Source of the DNA: a virus
Taxonomy: Duplodnaviria; Heunggongvirae; Uroviricota; Caudoviricetes
Strand: one strand, 5' to 3'
DNA length: 10,651 nucleotides
Virus record (IMG/VR): IMGVR_UViG_2698536677_000015
How positions within the stretch are numbered: position 1 is the stretch's first letter; each line of letters starts with the position of its first letter. The notes beneath the pieces were generated by a model, which saw only the letters and a program-made list of their open reading frames with translations, was not told the origin of the DNA and searched no databases. The translations under genes were made by a program, and so were the position numbers. Positions 1-10,651 of the stretch are shown one piece after another.

Positions 1-1
1 A

Positions 2-1387
2 CAGGCCACTCTGGATGATAAACAGCAGAGTGCCCTGACAAAAACAGAGCGTGAGCTGGCCCTGTCCAGACTGAAAGGGGAAGAAAAAGAGCGTGCCCGG
101 CTGGGGTATGCGGCGGATGACCTTGGTTTTGTGGGGGATTCGTATCAGGAGGCGAGACAGCGTTATATCAGTAATGCTCTGGAAGCCTGGCGTAATAACG
201 AGGCGAACAAACCTAAATCCCGGGGTGGAAAATCAGAGACGGAAAAAGCGGAAGACAGTTTTTCCCGGCTACTGAAGCAGCAGAAAGAGCAACTGGCACT
301 GGCGGGTCAGAATACAGAGCTGGCGAAGCTGAAGTACCAGACTGCGCAGGGCGAACTGAAAACCCTGACGGAGATGCAGAAGCAGGAACTGCTGCGTAAC
401 GCGGCCCTGATTGACCAGCAAAAAATCCGGGAACAGTTGCGATCCCGGGAAGAGACCCTGAAGAATGATAATGTGGCTGCGCGTGCATCAAATGAAGCCG
501 AACTGCTGGGATACGGGCAGGGAGAACGAGCCAGGGAACGCATGCGGGAGTTGCAGCAGATCCGCGACAGCTTCCGCCAGAAGGATGCGGACCTTCAGTC
601 TCAGTATCAGACCGGGGATATCAGTGAGGATTTTTACAGACAGGCACGGGCACAGAACGCGCAGTATCTGAGCGAACGCCTTAAGGACCAGGCAGCCTTT
701 TATGCCGAATCGGATGCGCAGCGTGCGGACTGGCAGAAAGGCTTGCAGGAGGGGCTCAGTAACTGGTTGGATAATGCGTCCGATTACGCCTCACAGGCAG
801 CACAGCTTGCGACGGAGGGTATCTCAGGGATGGTGAATAACATCACGGAGATGCTGAACGGAAATAAAGTGGAATGGCGCAGCTGGGCCTCATCAGTGCT
901 GCAGGAAATATCAAAAGTTCTTATGAATGCCGCGATTGTCAACGGAATTAAGACGGCGGCAAACGGTATGTCCGGTGCGGGAGGATTTCTCGGCAGCATT
1001 GGTGACTGGCTGGGCGGGGCGGTGGCCAATGCAAAAGGCGGCGTGTATACCTCGGCAAACCTGAGTGCGTACAGCAACAGTATTGTGGATACGCCCACGT
1101 ACTTTGCCTTTGCAAAAGGGGCCGGGCTGATGGGGGAGGCCGGACCTGAAGCCATTATGCCCCTGACGCGGGCGGCGGATGGCTCGCTGGGTGTGCGCGC
1201 GGTGGGTAGTATGTACGGCAGTGCGGGCCTGGTGTATTCCCCGGTCTACCATATCGCCATTCAGAATGACGGGACTAATGGCCAGATAGGGCCGGAGGCG
1301 GCAGGCAGTCTTGTGCAGCTGATTGACCAGCGGGTGCAGGCGGTGATGCTGTCCATGCGACGTGACGGAGGAATGCTGAGTGGCTGA
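2..1387 (+). CDS. H: Tail tape measure protein, C-terminal portion (lambda gpH family); the 5' end lies upstream of the window
   Basis: The frame is open from position 2 with no upstream stop (the ORF track lists only the GTG-initiated part 131..1387). Gln/Glu/Arg-rich coiled-coil-like sequence is followed by a Gly-rich C-terminus (e.g. PLTRAADGSLGVRAVGS), typical of lambdoid tape measure proteins. Position immediately upstream of M-L-K-I matches lambda gene order. Stop TGA at 1385..1387. Confidence 0.85.
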   Translation, partial: QATLDDKQQSALTKTERELALSRLKGEEKERARLGYAADDLGFVGDSYQEARQRYISNALEAWRNNEANKPKSRGGKSETEKAEDSFSRLLKQQKEQLALAGQNTELAKLKYQTAQGELKTLTEMQKQELLRNAALIDQQKIREQLRSREETLKNDNVAARASNEAELLGYGQGERARERMRELQQIRDSFRQKDADLQSQYQTGDISEDFYRQARAQNAQYLSERLKDQAAFYAESDAQRADWQKGLQEGLSNWLDNASDYASQAAQLATEGISGMVNNITEMLNGNKVEWRSWASSVLQEISKVLMNAAIVNGIKTAANGMSGAGGFLGSIGDWLGGAVANAKGGVYTSANLSAYSNSIVDTPTYFAFAKGAGLMGEAGPEAIMPLTRAADGSLGVRAVGSMYGSAGLVYSPVYHIAIQNDGTNGQIGPEAAGSLVQLIDQRVQAVMLSMRRDGGMLSG

Positions 1388-1721
1388 GATAAAAACGCTG
1401 CATCTGGTCCCGCGTGAAGGGATGCAGGTGAGTGAGAAGCCGTCGGTGGTGAGGGTGCGGTTTGGTGACGGTTATGAACAGCGCCGCCCCACAGGGCTGA
1501 ATCCTCAACTGAAGACGTTTCAGGCGGTGTTCCGGGTGACGGATGAGTCAACCCGGCGCTGGCTGGAAGAGTTTTTATCGTGGCATGGTGGTTACCGTGC
1601 CTTTTTGTGGCGACCGCCGAAACATAACCGGACGGTGAGGGTTGTGTGCCGTGAGTGGAGTGTCACGGATAATGCCCGGTACAGTGATTTCAGTTGCACG
1701 ATAGAGCAGGTGGTGAACTGA
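1380..1721 (+). CDS. M: Minor tail protein M (lambda gpM family)
   Basis: 113-aa ORF with the motifs VRFGDGYEQR and a C-terminal EQVVN, recognisable as lambda gpM. GTG start at 1380 overlaps the H stop by 8 nt, with GGAGGA 7 nt upstream. Stop TGA 1719..1721 overlaps the L start (ATGA). Confidence 0.85.
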   Translation: MAEIKTLHLVPREGMQVSEKPSVVRVRFGDGYEQRRPTGLNPQLKTFQAVFRVTDESTRRWLEEFLSWHGGYRAFLWRPPKHNRTVRVVCREWSVTDNARYSDFSCTIEQVVN

Positions 1722-2419
1722 TGCAGGATATTCACGAAGAAAGCCTGAACGAGTCGGTTAAGTCAGAGCAGTCACCGCGTGTGGTACTCTGGGAAATCGA
1801 CCTGACGGTGCAGGGCGGTGAGCGCTATTTTTTCTGCAATGAACTGAATGAAAAAGGGGAGCCGGTCACCTGGCAGGGGCGTGAATATCAGGCGTACCCG
1901 ATTGACGGCAGCGGCTTTGAGATGAACGGGAAGGGCAGCAGTGCCAGACCGTCGCTGACGGTGTCCAATCTGTTTGGCCTTGTCACCGGAATGGCGGAGG
2001 ACCTGCAGAGCCTGGTGGGGGCCACGGTGGTCCGCCGCCGGGTGTATGCCCGTTTTCTGGATGCGGTGAATTTTGTGGCGGGCAATCCGGAAGCGGACCC
2101 GGAGCAGGAGCTGAGCGACCGCTGGGTGGTGGAGCAGATGTCAGAGCTGACGGCCATGACAGCCTCGTTTGTGCTGGCAACACCGACGGAGACGGACGGA
2201 GCGCTGTTTCCCGGTCGCATTATGCTGGCGAATACCTGTATGTGGGATTACCGGGGAGATGAATGCGGGTATAACGGTCCTGCGGTGGCGGATGAGTTCG
2301 ACAACCCCACCACGGATATCCGTAAGGACAGATGCAGCAAGTGCATGCGTGGGTGTGAACTGCGCAGGAATGTCGGCAATTTTGGCGGTTTCCTTTCCAT
2401 TAATAAACTTTCGCAGTAA
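1721..2419 (+). CDS. L: Minor tail protein L (lambda gpL family), with a Cys-rich C-terminal domain
   Basis: ATG at 1721 (MQDIHEESLNE...). Strong similarity to lambda gpL throughout (VVLWEIDL, GERYFFCNE, GEPVTWQGREYQ). C-terminal CxnC...CxxCxxxC cysteine cluster and terminal GNFGGFLSINKLSQ. The track ORF 1694..2419 begins at an upstream in-frame Met; 1721 is preferred because of the ATGA coupling with M and the lambda-like N-terminus. Confidence 0.85.
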   Translation: MQDIHEESLNESVKSEQSPRVVLWEIDLTVQGGERYFFCNELNEKGEPVTWQGREYQAYPIDGSGFEMNGKGSSARPSLTVSNLFGLVTGMAEDLQSLVGATVVRRRVYARFLDAVNFVAGNPEADPEQELSDRWVVEQMSELTAMTASFVLATPTETDGALFPGRIMLANTCMWDYRGDECGYNGPAVADEFDNPTTDIRKDRCSKCMRGCELRRNVGNFGGFLSINKLSQ

Positions 2420-2429
2420 ATCCCGGTTT

Positions 2430-3173
2430 ATGACACAGACTGAATCAGCGATTCTGGCACATGCCCGGCGGTGTGCGCCTGCGGAGTCGTGCGGCTTCGT
2501 GATAAGCACGCCGGAGGGGGAGCGGTATATCCCTTGTGTGAATATTTCCGCAGAGCCGGAGGCGTATTTTCGTATCGCACCGGAAGACTGGCTGCGGGCA
2601 GAGATGCAGGGGGAGATTGTGGCACTGGTCCACAGTCATCCCGGTGGGCTGCCCTGGCTGAGCGAGGCTGACCGGCGGCTGCAGATAAAAAGCGCACTGC
2701 CCTGGTGGCTGGTCTGCCGGGGTGACATTCACAAATTCCGCTGTGTGCCACATCTGACAGGACGGCGCTTTGAGCACGGGGTGACGGACTGTTACACGCT
2801 GTTCCGGGATGCCTACCATCTGGCGGGAATTGATATGCCGGATTTTGAGCGTGAGGATGACTGGTGGCGTAACGGTCAGAACCTTTACCTGGACAATATG
2901 GCGGTCACCGGCTTTTACCGGGTGCCCCTGTCCTCTGCACAGGCGGGCGATATCCTGCTGTGCTGCTTTGGCGCATCGGTGGCCAATCATGCCGCCATAT
3001 ACTGCGGCAACGGTGAGCTGCTTCACCATCTGCCTGAACAACTGAGTAAACGGGAGAGGTATTCCGAAAAATGGCAACGACGAACGCATTCAGCCTGGCG
3101 TCACCGCCACTGGCACGCATCTGCCTTCACGGGGATTTGCAACGATTTGGCCGCCGCCTCAGCCTGTATGTGA
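2430..3173 (+). CDS. K: Tail assembly protein K, copy 1 (N-terminal JAB/MPN-type metalloprotease motif plus C-terminal NlpC/P60-like domain)
   Basis: 247-aa product (MTQTESAILAHARRC...). JAMM-like motif E19-SCGF ... H68-S-H70-x7-S78-x2-D81 (EIVALVHSHPGGLPWLSEAD). C-terminal Cys/His region (GVTDCY ... NHAAIYCG) typical of NlpC/P60. The track ORF 2169..3173 is the same frame extended back into L; ATG 2430 lies 10 nt after the L stop. Confidence 0.85.
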   Translation: MTQTESAILAHARRCAPAESCGFVISTPEGERYIPCVNISAEPEAYFRIAPEDWLRAEMQGEIVALVHSHPGGLPWLSEADRRLQIKSALPWWLVCRGDIHKFRCVPHLTGRRFEHGVTDCYTLFRDAYHLAGIDMPDFEREDDWWRNGQNLYLDNMAVTGFYRVPLSSAQAGDILLCCFGASVANHAAIYCGNGELLHHLPEQLSKRERYSEKWQRRTHSAWRHRHWHASAFTGICNDLAAASACM

Positions 3174-3751
3174 ACACGGCAGCGGAAGCCATTCGCGCCC
3201 TGTCGATGCAGATGCCGGGCTTTCGCCGTCAGATGAACGAAGGCTGGTACCAGATACGTATTCGCGGTGAGGACACGGCACCGGAGGCGGTGTACGCCCG
3301 TCTTCACGAACAGCTGGGTGAGGGGGCGGTCATCCATATTGTGCCGCGACTGGCCGGGGCCGGAAAGGGTGGACTGCAGATTGTGCTGGGGGCGGCAGCC
3401 ATCGTGGGCTCTTTCTTCACTGCCGGGGCATCAATGGCGTTATGGGGTTCAGCCCTGGCAGCCGGTGGTTTTTCTGCCACCACGATGCTGTTTTCACTGG
3501 GGGCCAGCATGATACTGGGTGGTGTGGCACAGATGCTTGCCCCGAAGCCAAAAACACCGGAATACAGGGCAACGGATAACGGCAGACAGAACACGTACTT
3601 TTCCTCGCTGGATAACATGATTGCCCAGGGGAACCCGATGCCGGTGCCTTACGGTGAAATGCTGGTTGGCTCCCGGCGAATCTCCCAGGACATCAGTACC
3701 CGTGATGAAGGCGGTGACGGGAAGATGGTGGTTATCGGGCGGCAGGCATAA
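3071..3751 (+). CDS. I: Tail assembly protein I, copy 1 (lambda gpI family)
   Basis: 226-aa ORF (MATTNAFSLASPPLARICLHGDLQRFGRR...) with a hydrophobic Gly/Ala-rich central segment and DNGRQNTYFSSLDNM. Start is embedded in the 3' end of K in another frame (103-nt overlap), as in lambda. GGAGAGG lies upstream of the ATG. Confidence 0.85.
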   Translation: MATTNAFSLASPPLARICLHGDLQRFGRRLSLYVNTAAEAIRALSMQMPGFRRQMNEGWYQIRIRGEDTAPEAVYARLHEQLGEGAVIHIVPRLAGAGKGGLQIVLGAAAIVGSFFTAGASMALWGSALAAGGFSATTMLFSLGASMILGGVAQMLAPKPKTPEYRATDNGRQNTYFSSLDNMIAQGNPMPVPYGEMLVGSRRISQDISTRDEGGDGKMVVIGRQA

Positions 3752-3773
3752 AAGCGAAAAAATCCCGCAGTGA

Positions 3774-3988
3774 TGTTTCCCGGTCGCATCATGCTGGCGA
3801 ACACCTGTATGTGGGATTACCGGGGAGATGAATGCGGGTATAACGGTCCTGCGGTGGCGGATGAGTTCGATAAACCCACCACCGATATCCGTAAGGACAG
3901 ATGCAGCAAGTGCATGCGCGGGTGTGAGATGCGCGGCATGGTGGCTAATTTTGGCGGTTTCCTTTCCATTAACAAACTTTCGCAGTAA
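3774..3988 (+). pseudogene. Detached 3' fragment of gene L (last ~70 codons, complete Cys-cluster domain) heading repeat unit 2
   Basis: Sequence from about 3774 matches L from about 2203 onward (FPGRIMLANTCMWDYRGDECGYNGPAVADEF...INKLSQ) at roughly 95% identity. It is joined abruptly to the I-downstream sequence at 3773/3774. An in-frame GTG-ATG at 3770..3775 gives a possible 72-aa ORF. Confidence 0.7.
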
Positions 3989-3993
3989 ATCCA

Positions 3994-4737
3994 ATGACAC
4001 AGACAGAATCAGCGATTCTGGCGCATGCCCGGCGGTGTGTGCCTGCGGAGTCGTGCGGCTTCGTGGTGAGAACGCCGGAGGGGGAGCGGTATATCCCTTG
4101 TGTGAATATCTCTGCAGAGCCGGAGGCGTATTTTCGTATTGCACCGGAAGACTGGCTGCGGGCAGAGATGCAGGGGGAGATTGTGGCACTGGTCCACAGT
4201 CATCCCGGTGGTCTGCCCTGGCTGAGCGAGGCCGACCGGCGGCTGCAGATAAAAAGTGCACTGTCCTGGTGGCTGGTCTGCCGGGGGGAAATTCATAAAT
4301 TCCGCTGTGTGCCACATCTGACAGGACGGCGCTTTGAGCACGGGGTGACGGACTGTTACACGCTGTTCCGGGATGCCTGCCATCTGGCGGGAATTGATAT
4401 GCCGGATTTTGAGCGTGAGGATGACTGGTGGCGCAACGGTCAGAACCTTTACCTGGACAATATGGCGGTCACCGGCTTTTACCGGGTGCCCCTGTCCTCT
4501 GCACAGGCGGGCGATATCCTGCTGTGCTGCTTTGGTGCTTCGGTACCGAACCATGCCGCCATTTACTGCGGCAACGGTGAACTGCTTCACCATCTGCCTG
4601 AACAACTGAGTAAACGGGAGAGGTATTCCGAAAAATGGCAACGACGAACGCATTCTGTCTGGCGTCACCGCCACTGGCACGCATCTGCCTTCACGGGGAT
4701 TTGCAACGATTTGGCCGCCGCCTCAGCCTGTACGTGA
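3994..4737 (+). CDS. K: Tail assembly protein K, copy 2 (allele B)
   Basis: 247-aa ORF, about 95% identical to copy 1 with scattered substitutions (CVPAESCGFVVRT, ALSWW, RGEIH, RDACH, SVPNH, ...SACT). The L-stop to K-start spacer is 5 nt here against 10 nt in copy 1. Confidence 0.8.
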   Translation: MTQTESAILAHARRCVPAESCGFVVRTPEGERYIPCVNISAEPEAYFRIAPEDWLRAEMQGEIVALVHSHPGGLPWLSEADRRLQIKSALSWWLVCRGEIHKFRCVPHLTGRRFEHGVTDCYTLFRDACHLAGIDMPDFEREDDWWRNGQNLYLDNMAVTGFYRVPLSSAQAGDILLCCFGASVPNHAAIYCGNGELLHHLPEQLSKRERYSEKWQRRTHSVWRHRHWHASAFTGICNDLAAASACT

Positions 4738-5315
4738 ACACGGCAGCGGAAGCCATCCGTGCCCTGTCGCTGCAGGTGCCGGGATTCCGCCGCCAGATGA
4801 ACGAAGGCTGGTACCAGATACGTATTGCTGGTGAGGACACGGCACCGGAGGCGGTGTATGCCCGCCTTCACGAACAACTGGGTGAGGGGGCGGTCATCCA
4901 TATTGTGCCGCGACTGGCCGGTGCAGGGAAAGGCGGACTGCAGATTGTGCTGGGGGCGGCAGCCATCGTGGGCTCTTTCTTCACGGCCGGAGCATCGATG
5001 GCAGCCTGGGGGGCAGCGCTGAGTGCCGGCGGTTTTTCTGCCACCACGATGCTGTTTTCACTGGGTGCCAGCATGATACTGGGTGGTGTGGCACAGATGC
5101 TGGCCCCGAAGCCAAAAACACCGGAATACAGGGCAACGGATAACGGTAAACAGAACACGTACTTTTCGTCGCTGGATAACATGATTGCCCAGGGGAACCC
5201 GATGCCGGTGCCTTACGGTGAAATGCTGGTTGGCTCCCGGCGAATCTCCCAGGACATCAGCACCCGTGATGAAGGCGGGGGCGGAACGGTCGTGGTTATC
5301 GGGCGACAGGGATAA
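4635..5315 (+). CDS. I: Tail assembly protein I, copy 2 (allele B)
   Basis: 226-aa ORF, near-identical to copy 1 with substitutions across the length (FCLASP, SLQVPGF, IRIAGED, AAWGAALSAGG, ...GGGGTVVVIGRQG). Confidence 0.8.
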   Translation: MATTNAFCLASPPLARICLHGDLQRFGRRLSLYVNTAAEAIRALSLQVPGFRRQMNEGWYQIRIAGEDTAPEAVYARLHEQLGEGAVIHIVPRLAGAGKGGLQIVLGAAAIVGSFFTAGASMAAWGAALSAGGFSATTMLFSLGASMILGGVAQMLAPKPKTPEYRATDNGKQNTYFSSLDNMIAQGNPMPVPYGEMLVGSRRISQDISTRDEGGGGTVVVIGRQG

Positions 5316-5320
5316 AACAT

Positions 5321-5354
5321 AAAAAAATCCCGCAGTGATCGCGGAGCTGCGGGG
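5321..5354 (-). terminator. Candidate intrinsic terminator for leftward transcription (hairpin with a T-tract on the minus strand)
   Basis: Plus strand reads AAAAAAA-TCCCGCAG-(11-nt loop)-CTGCGGGG. On the minus strand this is a GC-rich stem-loop followed by TTTTTTT. No convincing minus-strand gene lies upstream of it in this copy. Confidence 0.4.
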
Positions 5355-5538
5355 ACAGACAAATGAAGATCAATGTTAAGGAGTTGTTTTTGTTACTCGG
5401 GCAAAAAAACACTAACGCAGCGAAATTATAAGCGCCACAGTCAGTGTGTGAAAATGTGAAGATATTCAGAATTTTTATGCCATTACCGGTTTTAACCAAC
5501 AGGATTATCGGTGGGCATGAAAGAAAACCCCGGTATCA

Positions 5539-5673
5539 GTGGCGGATGAGTTCGATAAACCCACCACCGATATCCGTAAGGACAGATGCAGCAAGTGCAT
5601 GCGCGGGTGTGAGATGCGCGGCATGGTGGCTAATTTTGGCGGTTTCCTTTCCATTAACAAACTTTCGCAGTAA
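5539..5673 (+). pseudogene. Shorter detached 3' fragment of gene L (last ~44 codons) heading repeat unit 3
   Basis: From 5539 the sequence matches the L 3' end (VADEFDKPTTDIRKDRCSKCMRGC...INKLSQ). The first two cysteines of the cluster are missing. It is joined to spacer sequence at 5537..5539. Confidence 0.65.
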
Positions 5674-5678
5674 ATCCA

Positions 5679-6422
5679 ATGACACAGACAGAATCAGCGA
5701 TTCTGGCGCATGCCCGGCGGTGTGTGCCTGCGGAGTCGTGCGGCTTCGTGGTGAGAACGCCGGAGGGGGAGCGGTATATCCCTTGTGTGAATATCTCTGC
5801 AGAGCCGGAGGCGTATTTTCGTATTGCACCGGAAGACTGGCTGCGGGCAGAGATGCAGGGGGAGATTGTGGCACTGGTCCACAGTCATCCCGGTGGTCTG
5901 CCCTGGCTGAGCGAGGCCGACCGGCGGCTGCAGATAAAAAGTGCACTGTCCTGGTGGCTGGTCTGCCGGGGGGAAATTCATAAATTCCGCTGTGTGCCAC
6001 ATCTGACAGGACGGCGCTTTGAGCACGGGGTGACGGACTGTTACACGCTGTTCCGGGATGCCTACCATCTGGCGGGAATTGATATGCCGGATTTTGAGCG
6101 TGAGGATGACTGGTGGCGCAACGGTCAGAACCTGTACCTGGACAATATGGAGGCGACTGGTTTTTACAGGATTTCCCTGCCTTCCGCACAGCCTGGCGAT
6201 ATCCTGCTGTGCTGCTTTGGCGCATCGGTGGCCAATCATGCCGCCATATACTGCGGCAACGGTGAGCTGCTTCACCATCTGCCTGAACAACTGAGTAAAC
6301 GGGAGAGGTATTCCGAAAAATGGCAACGACGAACGCATTCAGCCTGGCGTCACCGCCACTGGCACGTATCTGCCTTCACGGGGATTTACAACGATTTGGC
6401 CGCCGCCTCAGCCTGTATGTGA
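5679..6422 (+). CDS. K: Tail assembly protein K, copy 3 (mosaic allele)
   Basis: 247-aa ORF. The 5' part is identical to copy 2, the middle carries copy-1-like residues (RDAYH, SVANH, HSAW), and a divergent patch of about 60 nt (around 6134..6190) encodes DNMEATGFYRISLPSAQPGD, present in neither other copy. Confidence 0.8.
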   Translation: MTQTESAILAHARRCVPAESCGFVVRTPEGERYIPCVNISAEPEAYFRIAPEDWLRAEMQGEIVALVHSHPGGLPWLSEADRRLQIKSALSWWLVCRGEIHKFRCVPHLTGRRFEHGVTDCYTLFRDAYHLAGIDMPDFEREDDWWRNGQNLYLDNMEATGFYRISLPSAQPGDILLCCFGASVANHAAIYCGNGELLHHLPEQLSKRERYSEKWQRRTHSAWRHRHWHVSAFTGIYNDLAAASACM

Positions 6423-7321
6423 ACACGGCAGCGGAAGCCATCCGTGCCCTGTCGATGCAGATGCCGGGATTCCGCCGTCAGATGAACGAAGGCTGGTACC
6501 AGATACGTATTCGCGGTGAGGACACGGCACCGGAGGCGGTGTACGCCCGTCTTCACGAACAGCTGGGTGAGGGAACGGTCATCCACATTGTGCCGCGACT
6601 GGCCGGGGCCGGAAAGGGTGGACTGCAGATTGTGCTGGGGGCGGCAGCCATCGTGGGCTCTTTCTTCACTGCCGGGGCATCAATGGCGTTATGGGGTTCA
6701 GCCCTGGCAGCCGGTGGTTTTTCTGCCACCACGATGCTGTTTTCTCTGGGGGCCAGCATGATTCTGGGTGGTGTGGCTCAGATGCTGGCCCCGAAGGCTA
6801 AAGTACCGGAGTACAAAAGCACGGATAACGGCAGACAGAACACGTATTTTTCGTCACTGGACAACATGATTGCCCAGGGAAAATTCCGCTGTGTGCCACA
6901 TCTGACAGGACGGCGCTTTGAGCACGGGGTGACGGACTGTTACACGCTGTTCCGGGATGCCTGCCATCTGGCGGGAATTGATATGCCGGATTTTGAGCGT
7001 GAGGATGACTGGTGGCGCAACGGTCAGAACCTTTACCTGGACAATATGGCGGTCACCGGCTTTTACCGGGTGCCCCTGTCCTCTGCACAGGCGGGCGATA
7101 TCCTGCTGTGCTGCTTTGGTGCTTCGGTACCGAACCATGCCGCCATTTACTGCGGCAACGGTGAACTGCTTCACCATCTGCCTGAACAACTGAGTAAACG
7201 GGAGAGGTATTCCGAAAAATGGCAACGACGAACGCATTCTGTCTGGCGTCACCGCCACTGGCACGCATCTGCCTTCACGGGGATTTGCAACGATTTGGCC
7301 GCCGCCTCAGCCTGTACGTGA
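6320..7321 (+). CDS. In-frame I-K fusion ORF: I residues 1-187 joined to K residues 102-247 (NlpC/P60-like half only)
   Basis: 333-aa ORF. The N-terminal part is I sequence up to ...SLDNMIAQG (codon 187 ends at 6880). It then continues directly as K from KFRCVPHLTGRRFEHG... in the copy-2 (allele B) version through to the K stop. Junction is at about 6879..6883. Confidence 0.7.
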   Translation: MATTNAFSLASPPLARICLHGDLQRFGRRLSLYVNTAAEAIRALSMQMPGFRRQMNEGWYQIRIRGEDTAPEAVYARLHEQLGEGTVIHIVPRLAGAGKGGLQIVLGAAAIVGSFFTAGASMALWGSALAAGGFSATTMLFSLGASMILGGVAQMLAPKAKVPEYKSTDNGRQNTYFSSLDNMIAQGKFRCVPHLTGRRFEHGVTDCYTLFRDACHLAGIDMPDFEREDDWWRNGQNLYLDNMAVTGFYRVPLSSAQAGDILLCCFGASVPNHAAIYCGNGELLHHLPEQLSKRERYSEKWQRRTHSVWRHRHWHASAFTGICNDLAAASACT

Positions 7322-7899
7322 ACACGGCAGCGGAAGCCATCCGTGCCCTGTCGCTGCAGGTGCCGGGATTCCGCCGCCAGATGAACGAAGGCTGGTACCA
7401 GATACGTATTGCTGGTGAGGACACGGCACCGGAGGCGGTGTATGCCCGCCTTCACGAACAACTGGGTGAGGGGGCGGTCATCCATATTGTGCCGCGACTG
7501 GCCGGTGCAGGGAAAGGCGGACTGCAGATTGTGCTGGGGGCGGCAGCCATCGTGGGCTCTTTCTTCACGGCCGGAGCATCGATGGCAGCCTGGGGGGCAG
7601 CGCTGAGTGCCGGCGGTTTTTCTGCCACCACGATGCTGTTTTCACTGGGTGCCAGCATGATACTGGGTGGTGTGGCACAGATGCTGGCCCCGAAGCCAAA
7701 AACACCGGAATACAGGGCAACGGATAACGGTAAACAGAACACGTACTTTTCGTCGCTGGATAACATGATTGCCCAGGGGAACCCGATGCCGGTGCCTTAC
7801 GGTGAAATGCTGGTTGGCTCCCGGCGAATCTCCCAGGACATCAGCACCCGTGATGAAGGCGGGGGCGGAACGGTCGTGGTTATCGGGCGACAGGGATAA
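7219..7899 (+). CDS. I: Tail assembly protein I, copy 4 (identical in protein sequence to copy 2)
   Basis: 226-aa ORF with the same translation as 4635..5315. It starts inside the K-derived part of the fusion ORF in the usual K/I overlap arrangement. Confidence 0.8.
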   Translation: MATTNAFCLASPPLARICLHGDLQRFGRRLSLYVNTAAEAIRALSLQVPGFRRQMNEGWYQIRIAGEDTAPEAVYARLHEQLGEGAVIHIVPRLAGAGKGGLQIVLGAAAIVGSFFTAGASMAAWGAALSAGGFSATTMLFSLGASMILGGVAQMLAPKPKTPEYRATDNGKQNTYFSSLDNMIAQGNPMPVPYGEMLVGSRRISQDISTRDEGGGGTVVVIGRQG

Positions 7900-7904
7900 A
7901 ACAT

Positions 7905-7938
7905 AAAAAAATCCCGCAGTGATCGCGGAGCTGCGGGG
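7905..7938 (-). terminator. Second copy of the candidate minus-strand hairpin/T-tract terminator
   Basis: Same sequence as 5321..5354, at an offset of 2584 bp. Confidence 0.4.
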
Positions 7939-8103
7939 ACAGACAAATGAAGATCAATGTTAAGGAGTTGTTTTTGTTACTCGGGCAAAAAAACACTAAC
8001 GCAGCGAAATTATAAGCGCCACAGTCAGTGTGTGAAAATGTGAAGATATTCAGAATTTTTATGCCATTACCGGTTTTAACCAACAGGATTATCGGTGGGC
8101 ATG

Positions 8104-8144
8104 AAAGAAAACCCCGGTATCTGCTGATACCGGGGGTTCTCTTT
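8104..8144. terminator. Perfect 10-bp inverted repeat hairpin with T/A-rich flanks; candidate bidirectional terminator
   Basis: CCCCGGTATC-TGCT-GATACCGGGG at 8112..8135, followed by GTTCTCTTT on the plus strand and preceded by AAAGAAAA (a T-rich run on the minus strand). Confidence 0.45.
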
Positions 8145-8241
8145 AGCATGGCAGAAATGTGTTTCATGCTTTTCGGGCGAAGGATATCCGACTTCTGTAC
8201 GGAATGGCAAGTGGCGGTTAATTTATTCAGGGGAAGGCTGT

Positions 8242-8263
8242 ATGGGAAAAGGTGGCGGTAAGA
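8242..8263 (+). other. 22-bp remnant of a J-gene start (ATGGGAAAAGGTGGCGGTAAGA, encoding MGKGGGK) with its own upstream purine-rich RBS-like sequence
   Basis: Closely matches the true J start at 10317 (ATGGGCAAAGGTGGCGGC..., MGKGGGR). It is preceded by AGGGGAAGG and joined at 8263/8264 to internal K sequence. The ATG is out of frame with the K fragment and would give only about 49 codons. Confidence 0.5.
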
Positions 8264-8887
8264 GCAGAGCCGGAGGCGTATTTTCGTATCGCACCGGAAG
8301 ACTGGCTGCGGGCAGAGATGCAGGGGGAGATTGTGGCACTGGTCCACAGTCATCCCGGTGGGCTGCCCTGGCTGAGCGAGGCTGACCGGCGGCTGCAGAT
8401 AAAAAGCGCACTGCCCTGGTGGCTGGTCTGCCGGGGTGACATTCACAAATTCCGCTGTGTGCCACATCTGACAGGACGGCGCTTTGAGCACGGGGTGACG
8501 GACTGTTACACGCTGTTCCGGGATGCCTACCATCTGGCGGGAATTGATATGCCGGATTTTGAGCGTGAGGATGACTGGTGGCGTAACGGTCAGAACCTTT
8601 ACCTGGACAATATGGCGGTCACCGGCTTTTACCGGGTGCCCCTGTCCTCTGCACAGGCGGGCGATATCCTGCTGTGCTGCTTTGGCGCATCGGTGGCCAA
8701 TCATGCCGCCATATACTGCGGCAACGGTGAGCTGCTTCACCATCTGCCTGAACAACTGAGTAAACGGGAGAGGTATTCCGAAAAATGGCAACGACGAACG
8801 CATTCAGCCTGGCGTCACCGCCACTGGCACGCATCTGCCTTCACGGGGATTTGCAACGATTTGGCCGCCGCCTCAGCCTGTATGTGA
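8264..8887 (+). pseudogene. 5'-truncated K gene (codons 1-40 missing), copy-1 allele
   Basis: From 8264 the sequence aligns with K copy 1 from nt 121 onward, and the translation from AEPEAYFRIAPEDWL... is identical to copy 1. The region containing the conserved ESCGF glutamate is absent. An in-frame GTG at 8252 could initiate a 211-aa truncated product (track ORF 8252..8887). Confidence 0.7.
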
Positions 8888-9465
8888 ACACGGCAGCGGA
8901 AGCCATTCGCGCCCTGTCGATGCAGATGCCGGGCTTTCGCCGTCAGATGAACGAAGGCTGGTACCAGATACGTATTCGCGGTGAGGACACGGCACCGGAG
9001 GCGGTGTACGCCCGTCTTCACGAACAGCTGGGTGAGGGGGCGGTCATCCATATTGTGCCGCGACTGGCCGGGGCCGGAAAGGGTGGACTGCAGATTGTGC
9101 TGGGGGCGGCAGCCATCGTGGGCTCTTTCTTCACTGCCGGGGCATCAATGGCGTTATGGGGTTCAGCCCTGGCAGCCGGTGGTTTTTCTGCCACCACGAT
9201 GCTGTTTTCTCTGGGGGCCAGCATGATTCTGGGTGGTGTGGCTCAGATGCTGGCCCCGAAGGCTAAAGTACCGGAGTACAAAAGCACGGATAACGGCAGA
9301 CAGAACACGTATTTTTCGTCACTGGACAACATGATTGCCCAGGGTAACCCGATGCCGGTGCCTTACGGGGAAATGCTGGTTGGCTCCCGCCGTATATCCC
9401 AGGACATCAGTACCCGTGATGAAGGCGGGGGCGGAAAGGTCGTGGTTATCGGGCGGCAGGCATAA
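8785..9465 (+). CDS. I: Tail assembly protein I, copy 5 (allele C)
   Basis: 226-aa ORF. Mostly like copy 1, but with APKAKVPEYKST in place of APKPKTPEYRAT and GGGGKVVVIGRQA at the C-terminus. The same KAKVPEYKST variant is found in the I part of the fusion ORF. Confidence 0.8.
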   Translation: MATTNAFSLASPPLARICLHGDLQRFGRRLSLYVNTAAEAIRALSMQMPGFRRQMNEGWYQIRIRGEDTAPEAVYARLHEQLGEGAVIHIVPRLAGAGKGGLQIVLGAAAIVGSFFTAGASMALWGSALAAGGFSATTMLFSLGASMILGGVAQMLAPKAKVPEYKSTDNGRQNTYFSSLDNMIAQGNPMPVPYGEMLVGSRRISQDISTRDEGGGGKVVVIGRQA

Positions 9466-9470
9466 AAGCG

Positions 9471-9507
9471 AAAAAATCCCGCAGTGCTCACGGACAGGAA
9501 CTGCGGG
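9471..9507 (-). terminator. Candidate minus-strand hairpin/T-tract terminator downstream of I copy 5
   Basis: AAAAAA-CCCGCAG-(16-nt loop)-CTGCGGG on the plus strand. The stem arms are the same as in the 5321 and 7905 copies but the loop differs, and the loop is long, so this is a weak call. Confidence 0.3.
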
Positions 9508-9620
9508 AGCGTTACGAAGATTGAGTGTAAGGAATTATTCTTATGTCACGACAAAAACATTAACTCAGAGAGGGAGGATGTGCCGTTCTTTTCAGGGAGA
9601 AAGGATTTATCGTCCTGAGG

Positions 9621-9649
9621 AATAAAGGTAAGGGGCCCGCCCCTTACCT
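9621..9649 (-). terminator. Candidate intrinsic terminator of sodC
   Basis: Perfect 10-bp stem AGGTAAGGGG / CCCCTTACCT with a 4-nt loop at 9626..9649, six nt beyond the sodC stop, followed on the minus strand by TTTATT. No T-tract follows on the plus strand, so it is probably unidirectional. Confidence 0.5.
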
Positions 9650-9655
9650 GACTGA

Positions 9656-10183
9656 TTATTGAATGATGCCGCAGGCCATTCTCGCACCACCACCGCCCAG
9701 GGGCTCCGGATGGTCATGATGGTTATCACCGCCAGCATGAAGCATGAGAGAACGCCCTTTAATCTCTTTTAATGAGTTCAGTCTCGGGGCCAGGACCGGG
9801 TAGTTCGCTTTTCCGTCATGCGTCACGAACAGCGCAGGGAGGTCGCCCAGGTGTCCATCCGGAGACCAGGGGCCAAGATGTTTGCCGGTGTTTTTCGGGT
9901 CAAAGTGACCGCCAGCCGATAATGCTGCGACCGGTTTTCCGTCTTTCAGTGCCGGGGCGCAATTTCCTTTTTCGTGCACATGAAAACCATGAATGCCTTC
10001 AGACAGAGAGTGAAGGGCTGGTGTGAACAGCAGACCGTAGGGGGTCTCCTGAATGGTTATTTTTCCAATGCTGACTTCTTTTCCGTCAGCACTGACAAGG
10101 TTCATTGGGACTTCCTGTTCTGCTGCGTATCCGCATGATGCTGCTGTCAGCATGGCAATGGCAGCAATGATTTTACATTTCAT
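9656..10183 (-). CDS. sodC: Periplasmic Cu/Zn superoxide dismutase (SodC family), a prophage cargo (moron) gene
   Basis: 175-aa product with an N-terminal signal peptide ([20 protein letters not shown]). Hallmark Cu/Zn-SOD motifs are present: [70 protein letters not shown] sits 5-6 nt upstream of the ATG at 10183..10181. The track ORF 9656..10642 is the same frame extended upstream antisense to J. Confidence 0.85.
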
Positions 10184-10316
10184 AAAACCCTCATTAATTC
10201 CGTTAACAGACTGAGCTTGCTGGTTACAGGGTAACAAACAGCGTTCTGATGATATCGCGCAATAGCTGTGCAATATCCTATCACTGCGATTAATAATACC
10301 AATTGAGAGGAACATT
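10184..10316. promoter_or_regulatory. Divergent intergenic region between sodC (leftward) and J (rightward); presumed site of the sodC promoter and the J ribosome-binding site
   Basis: 133 bp of AT-rich noncoding sequence between two divergently oriented start codons. GAGAGGA lies 7 nt upstream of the J ATG. No -35/-10 pair could be assigned with confidence by eye. Confidence 0.3.
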
Positions 10317-10651
10317 ATGGGCAAAGGTGGCGGCAGGGCGCACACGCCTCGAGAGGCGAAGGATAATCTCAAATCCACGCAGATGATGAGTGTGATTGAT
10401 GCGATTGGTGAGGGACCGATAGAAGGCCCGGTGAAGGGGCTGCAGAGTATCCTGGTGAACAAAACCCCGCTGACGGACACGGACGGCAATCCTGTGATAC
10501 ACGGTGTGACCGCGGTCTGGCGCGCCGGGGAGCAGGAGCAGACACCACCGGAAGGCTTTGAGTCCTCCGGAGCTGAAACCGGACTGGGCGTGGAAGTGAC
10601 GAAGGCAAAGCCGGTAACGCGCACCATTACATCCGCGAACATTGACCGCCT
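10317..10651 (+). CDS. J: Tail tip / host-specificity protein J, N-terminal 111 codons (continues beyond the window)
   Basis: Open frame from ATG 10317 to the window end ([39 protein letters not shown]...[17 protein letters not shown]...[12 protein letters not shown]). This is a very close match to the lambda gpJ N-terminus. It is absent from the ORF track because no stop is reached. Confidence 0.85.

Follow-up and report, generated by a model that had tools for sequence, protein, structure and literature searches.

Background

The genomes of lambdoid prophages are mosaic by homologous recombination, and many near-identical lambdoid prophages are harboured by the genomes of EHEC strains. In phage lambda, the product of gene K (gpK) is needed for assembly of the tail; mass spectrometry of virions did not detect it, and where it is located has not been established (PMC12617516, PMC10721106). 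It has further been established that the greedy scaffolding and gap closing of short-read assemblies with SSPACE and GapFiller makes false joins (PMC5320598).

Here we analysed a stretch of 10,651 nt of viral DNA, referred to throughout as the window, in which an initial annotation had identified three copies of a K gene. The third of these, K3, was described as a mosaic with a short divergent patch, and gene conversion or recombination among at least three K alleles was proposed as its origin.

Identity and domains of the K3 protein

The product of K3 is, as judged from its sequence, a member of the lambda gpK family that combines a JAB/MPN with an NlpC/P60 domain and is a predicted peptidase. 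Pfam searches matched aa 3-105 to Prok-JAB (PF14464, E 2.9e-15) and aa 111-224 to NlpC/P60 (PF00877, E 3.5e-13), the motifs HSHP, SEAD, DCY (with Cys121) and NHAAIY (with His187) were all present, and the gene shared 84.3% nucleotide identity with lambda K (NC_001416, 14133-14875) over 744 nt. Lambda gpK is of equal length (247 aa), contains both domains and occupies the same place between L and I; it is annotated as a C40 family peptidase. K3 is an EHEC/Stx-type lambdoid allele and not that of lambda itself. The L-K-I-J gene order is present in lambda and in B19374, the natural parent of the K3 unit, and is disturbed in the window by the joins described below. A sequence search of the PDB returned no structure of gpK, with only a distant JAB-domain structure (2kks) being matched.

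The divergent patch of K3 is located inside the predicted NlpC/P60 domain, between the putative catalytic residues Cys121 and His187. Its initial placement in a 'surface-exposed C-terminal domain' is unsupported, given this position and the absence of gpK from the proteins detected in virions (PMC10721106, PMC12617516).

Gene I, which overlaps the end of K, is annotated in two ways in public records (e.g. 3071-3751 and 3170-3751, and likewise in the other units). In one version, which is that of lambda, translation starts at an ATG so as to give 226 aa and a 103-nt overlap with K; in the other, produced by PGAP, the start is a GTG overlapping the stop codon of K and the product has 193 aa.

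Block structure of K3

An ungapped three-way comparison of K1 (2430-3173), K2 (3994-4737) and K3 (5679-6422) revealed 46 variable sites, which divide K3 into the blocks listed in Table 1. K3 had the K2 state at all 16 informative sites between nt 12 and nt 303 and remained identical to K2 through nt 385, which bears out the first ~380 nt of identity originally noticed. At nt 386 (window position 6064) the K1 state was encountered, encoding Tyr129 in place of Cys, and from this site onward K3 carried K1 states at 12 of 13 informative sites, the exception being nt 441 (6119), at which it agreed with K2. The recorded switch to K1-like residues was likewise recovered, with 11 of 11 informative sites in the K1 state from nt 543 to nt 740, including those for Ala185, Ala222 and Met247.

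The dense patch of about 60 nt, noted as belonging to neither K1 nor K2, was found to comprise 15 private substitutions. Six residues are changed as a result (A158E, V159A, V165I, P166S, S168P and A172P, thus aa 158-172), and the protein motif of the patch is EATGFYRISLPSAQPGD. Outside the patch, private sites were restricted to nt 689 (A230V) and nt 710 (C237Y). These terminal changes had been called unique, which holds only within the window: a majority of 15 in 19 aligned alleles, with that of lambda among them, has A at nt 710 (Tyr in GIYND), and T at nt 689 is shared with CP-1639, Stx2a_JNE110649, phage 2851 and CFSAN004176. The 17 K3-private substitutions consisted of 10 transitions and 7 transversions, none of which had A as the K1/K2 starting base, in agreement with the earlier statement that they are not adenine-specific.

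Permutation tests were applied to both classes of site. The 29 informative sites formed four runs, and as few were obtained in none of 200,000 permutations (P<5e-6); the concentration of 15 of the 17 private sites in one 61-nt window was also reached in none of 200,000 permutations (P<5e-6, with an analytic bound of ~4e-12). The three-way alignment hence resolved a genuine block structure, and evenly spread point mutations were ruled out.

Age and nature of the patch

Relative to K1, codons 152-172 had a dS of 0.89 and a dN of 0.15 (dN/dS 0.17), whilst K outside the patch had a dS of 0.12-0.17 and a dN/dS of 0.14-0.17, such that synonymous divergence in the patch was ~7x that of the remainder of the gene. 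Because the patch is several times older at silent sites and its dN/dS is unchanged, it is better regarded as an imported tract than as a product of hypermutation or positive selection. These values fit an old segment that was imported from a distant K lineage and has been under purifying selection.

The patch differed from lambda K at 21 of 61 nt, and the nearest other patch haplotype, that of PhiR12_2*, differed at 13 of 61 nt. Carriers varied at the left edge of the tract, with either G or T at nt 456. A BLAST search with 6120-6200 (81 nt, including the patch) had been suggested as a means of identifying the donor lineage; it retrieved ~294 E. coli records at >=99% identity, and a donor lineage did not emerge from it. 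No donor containing the patch inside similarly diverged flanks was found, all of the carriers found having E. coli lambdoid flanks, so the origin of the patch is inferred from dS and not observed. Within the K gene pool, codons 152-172 exist as two deep haplotypes (dS 0.89) that recombine freely; balancing selection may maintain both, the segment then being a swappable determinant of specificity in the peptidase domain of gpK.

Distribution of K3 and of the patch

Copies of the K3 gene without a single difference over its 744 nt were present in at least 21 complete genomes of E. coli among the matches listed, with sources that included human, pig, poultry (chicken among them), seawater and giant panda, and 341 records in all matched it at >=99% identity. 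This identity extended beyond the gene, in that the unit 5539-6879 (1341 nt) was 100% identical to the complete genomes B19374 and 22-245. Individual E. coli genomes encoded up to 15 copies of K, located in different prophages.

In IMG/VR, the exact 47-nt core of the patch was present in 65 contigs. The 58 complete K genes with the exact patch represented 48 distinct alleles, four of the 58 being identical to K3. The 5' flanks of these 58 carriers were K2-like, K1-like or mixed, and their 3' flanks were K1-like, K2-like or lambda-like. At two IMG/VR loci (L037:5827-6570 and L054:371-1114) the patch was kept and the 5' part of K was replaced by unrelated sequence; the K genes in question are either genuinely truncated or fused, or they result from additional misassemblies.

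An alignment of 12 phage alleles with lambda and the E. coli prophage alleles of CFSAN004176 and Z1323HEC0108 gave a similar picture. K3, CP-1639 and Stx2_EH1846 have the patch in common, adjoined in Stx2_EH1846 by a K2-type 3' flank, and Stx2a_JNE110649 has K3-type flanks without the patch. The clustering of the differences, together with blocks that assort independently elsewhere, is best explained by a recombinant (mosaic) K allele. Since an identical K3 allele is found in unrelated complete genomes and the patch occurs with varied flanks, the mosaic is older than the sequence analysed here. The lambdoid gene pool thus contains K3 as a standing allele, of which public data already include many copies. 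The initial proposal of recombination among three or more K lineages is accordingly upheld for the allele, but exchange among tandem copies at this locus is not, the same allele being present in unrelated genomes.

Organization of the window

The window proved to be the entire contig CYFX01000082.1 (10,651 bp) of the draft assembly GCA_001285605.1, both ends of which lie within repeated prophage genes, H and J. From ORFs and Pfam matches, its genes are those for the tape-measure C-terminus, M, L, K, I, a minus-strand sodC and the start of J. The normal locus, by comparison with 5,426 complete genomes of E. coli and 50,697 records of phages, is a single H-M-L-K-I-(sodC)-J of ~4.9 kb. Self-comparison of the window instead yielded five K-I units in the same orientation, hence five K copies and not the three initially counted. 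K4 (from 6881) was 100% identical to K2, and K5 (from 8264) was 100% identical to K1 over the shared part.

These units are distributed over five segments of three types, A, B and C (Table 1). A length of 1241 nt of segment 4 (6881-8121) repeats segment 2 (4297-5537) at 100% identity, and 946 nt of segment 1 is repeated at 100% in segment 5. Segment 5 also contains an in-register switch, with type A sequence extending to 9209 and type C beginning at 9052, the 158 nt at 9052-9209 being common to both.

Table 1. Coordinates of K3 and its blocks, the five segments of the window, and the joins between segments
Feature	Position	Strand	Description
K3 gene	5679..6422	+	lambda gpK-type tail tip assembly protein, 247 aa (ORF, Pfam, lambda K homology)
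K3, K2-identical block (K nt 1-385)	5679..6063	+	16 differences relative to K1
K3, transition zone	6064..6133	+	K1 state at 6064, K2 state at 6119; no other variation among K1, K2 and K3
K3, divergent patch (K nt 456-516)	6134..6194	+	15 substitutions in 61 nt relative to K1=K2; third, deep haplotype
K3, K1-like block	6195..6422	+	K1 state at 11/11 informative sites; two further differences, at 6367 and 6388
Segment 1, type A	1..3772	+	tape-measure C-terminus, M, L, K1, I1, first arm of terminator hairpin
Segment 2, type B	3774..5537	+	L 3' fragment, K2, I2, AT-rich I-J spacer to hairpin loop
Segment 3, type C	5539..6879	+	L 3' fragment, K3, first 461 nt of I3
Segment 4, type B again	6881..8262	+	K from nt 304, I4, I-J spacer, first 8 J codons
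Segment 5, types A then C	8264..10651	+	K from nt 121, I5, sodC, J start (10317-)
Natural continuation of K3 unit	9052..10651	+	0 mismatches to B19374
Join J1	3773		single A; left parent continues with C, right parent preceded by C
Join J2	5538		single A; left parent continues with T, right parent preceded by G
Join J3	6880		single A; B19374 and the segment 5 unit continue with T, right parents preceded by T or C
Join J4	8263		single A; left parent continues with G, right parents preceded by C or T

At the sequence level, type B is essentially identical to the sodC-less prophage of strain Z1323HEC0108, and type C is identical to the sodC-bearing prophage of strain B19374. Segment 2 matched the Z1323HEC0108 prophage at 99.7% over 3766-5537, with three of the five mismatches falling at the join itself, before 3774, and segment 4 matched it with 0 mismatches. 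In B19374, 5539-6879 and 9345-10651 are contiguous and 100% identical to the window; as the former passes directly into the latter there, 6880-9344 interrupts what is elsewhere a continuous prophage sequence. For segment 1 the best match in a complete genome was 98.0%, and type A is either a rare prophage or an in-register chimera.

The sodC gene (Cu/Zn superoxide dismutase; 9656-10183, minus strand) is a moron situated between I and J and typical of a subset of EHEC/Stx-type lambdoid prophages. The type-B I-J spacer (5316-5537 and 7900-8232) is ~340 nt with ~41% GC and is found where other prophages have the sodC moron; the strong hairpin with a 10-bp stem at 8112-8135 lies inside it. The spacer contained no annotated gene in Z1323HEC0108 and had no Rfam match, and no Rfam family was found in the window as a whole.

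The four joins

Each join consists of one segment, one A and the next segment, the A matching neither parent at any of the four positions. J1 and J2 each cut a hairpin just past its 5' arm, and intact versions of both hairpins are found at other positions of the window; the intact hairpin at 9477-9508 has a predicted energy of -10.1 kcal/mol, and that at 8112-8135 has a 10-bp stem and -13.7 kcal/mol (z = -7.1). Allele-variable positions adjoin J1 on its left (the base at which divergence begins after CAGTG), J3 on either side (6880 and K nt 303) and J4 on its right (K nt 120). Two observations count against an artefactual reading of the joins: the right-hand starts at J1 and J2 showed no polymorphism among the parents compared, and four identical spacer bases would be expected by chance at ~1/64, so that their agreement is only moderately improbable when taken alone.

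Searches for the joins in other sequences were negative. The exact 30-mer of J3 had no match in GTDB species genomes, IMG/VR or JGI metagenomes, nor did that of J1 in GTDB species genomes, that of J2 in JGI metagenomes or that of J4 in IMG/VR. BLAST searches of 5,426 complete E. coli genomes retrieved no match that spanned J1, J2 or J4, and searches of a plasmid collection none that spanned J2, J3 or J4, with only single-unit loci being found in both cases; in the J4 region the E. coli matches ended at the join. No colinear K-I array was present among the best whole-window matches in either E. coli genomes or phages.

J3 creates an in-frame I::K fusion ORF (6419-7321, plus strand) of 300 aa from a GTG, with Lambda_tail_I and NlpC/P60 domains. 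This GTG-start version is on record in databases, whilst no record was found for a 333-aa ATG-start version of the fusion or for the 211-aa ORF of the truncated K5. An antisense gene call of 286 aa (7880-8740, minus strand) also exists through the joins only.

A de Bruijn k-mer origin of the segment ends was considered and rejected, as the start of segment 4 fits k=83 and the start of segment 5 needs k=27. Greedy extension that stops where reads disagree fits the segment ends better.

Origin of K3 and of the K-I array

We consider it highly probable that K3 is a pre-existing mosaic lambdoid allele, and that the K-I array is a draft contig chained from at least three co-resident prophages. The five-copy array is most likely a draft-assembly artefact, and the most likely status of K1, K2 and K3 is that of alleles from different lambdoid prophages residing together, not of paralogues in a row. 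K3 would be the intact K gene of one lambdoid prophage in the sequenced E. coli strain. Its mosaic would have been generated by earlier homologous recombination, probably as short conversion tracts, between related phages or prophages, which would have combined a K2-type 5' part, a K1-type 3' part and a 61-nt insert whose source was a far more diverged lineage of K, the insert being carried under the same purifying selection as the remaining gene. During assembly, the extension of contig ends may have halted at inverted repeats or where the reads of several prophages disagreed; pieces of types A, B and C would then have been chained head to tail by read pairs, presumably in scaffolding and gap closing, and each residual one-base gap would have been filled with an A. 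K3 would stand beside K1 and K2 because the window is a short-read draft contig of chained prophage pieces. A paper search for CYFX01 or GCA_001285605 found no publication naming either, and the assembly method is hence one that we infer.

Were the five K-I units instead a genuine tandem array in one prophage, K3 could have been built in place by gene conversion. The units do share an orientation, the reading frames of K and I are intact in all of them, J3 joins its segments in frame, and the copies are similar enough for conversion; yet single-copy loci of complete, unrelated genomes match the K3 unit at 100% identity, so no event is needed at this locus, and the patch is in no other copy in the window, which leaves no donor inside the array. 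Such an array would moreover have to accommodate four differing joins that lack shared homology and each have one non-templated A, the failure of the searched joins to match in any collection scanned, a source contig made wholly of repeat sequence, and the splitting by 6880-9344 of sequence that is contiguous in B19374. We therefore regard a tandem array with conversion in place as unlikely. A physically real array produced by serial template switches between co-resident prophages, at hairpins or microhomologies, and serving as a store of K/I cassettes, appears quite unlikely as well.

Explanations that concern K3 alone fare less well still. Local targeted hypermutation of the type driven by diversity-generating retroelements (DGRs), or strong diversifying selection on an exposed loop, would account for six amino acid changes packed into 15 residues (aa 158-172), but none of the 17 private changes is from A, both transitions and transversions are present, and dS is ~7x that of the rest of the gene with dN/dS still at 0.17. 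Neither a reverse transcriptase nor a template repeat is among the genes of the window, those called being without exception tail genes, sodC or artefactual ORFs, and the repeats found are whole K-I units only. Furthermore, hundreds of genomes carry one fixed haplotype, without a cloud of variants, and gpK was not detected in virions (PMC10721106); an origin of the patch by either process is very improbable. The possibility that the assembly produced K3 itself as an in-register chimera of reads of the K1 and K2 types derives some plausibility from the 385 nt shared by K2 and K3 and the long identities between K1 and K3, which short reads could not phase, and from the switch of this kind in segment 5. 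Against this, the same 744-nt allele and the surrounding 1341 nt exist in complete genomes of unrelated sources, and four IMG/VR contigs have the identical allele, making a chimeric K3 extremely improbable.

Significance

The mosaic itself is of small scientific weight, because mosaic alleles are to be expected in lambdoid tail genes. A minor point of interest is the presence of a short, very old and freely recombining alternative segment between the NlpC/P60 catalytic Cys and His. The practical value of the analysis is as a warning about a public draft contig with four probable false joins and an illusory tandem 'gene family'. Scans for gene amplification, paralogue conversion or new domain fusions would be misled by CYFX01000082.1, and the 300-aa I::K 'fusion' and the 286-aa antisense ORF are probably spurious join products that are now in protein databases.

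Comparison with known systems

The window resembles the false joins attributed to SSPACE and GapFiller (PMC5320598) in being a contig of repeats only, with joins at hairpins or allele-variable sites, a single putative filler base at each join and sequence that is used twice.

In the variable regions of DGRs, substitutions are likewise packed densely into a short stretch near the C-terminus of a gene from the phage tail region. The K3 patch differs from them in having no adenine specificity, reverse transcriptase or template repeat, and in being a fixed haplotype with high dS.

K3 also resembles the established mosaicism of lambdoid prophages, in that the K alleles are likewise patchworks whose segments assort independently across phages. 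No notable departure from this mosaicism was seen; the tract in K3 is short (~61-87 nt) and unusually deep (dS 0.89).
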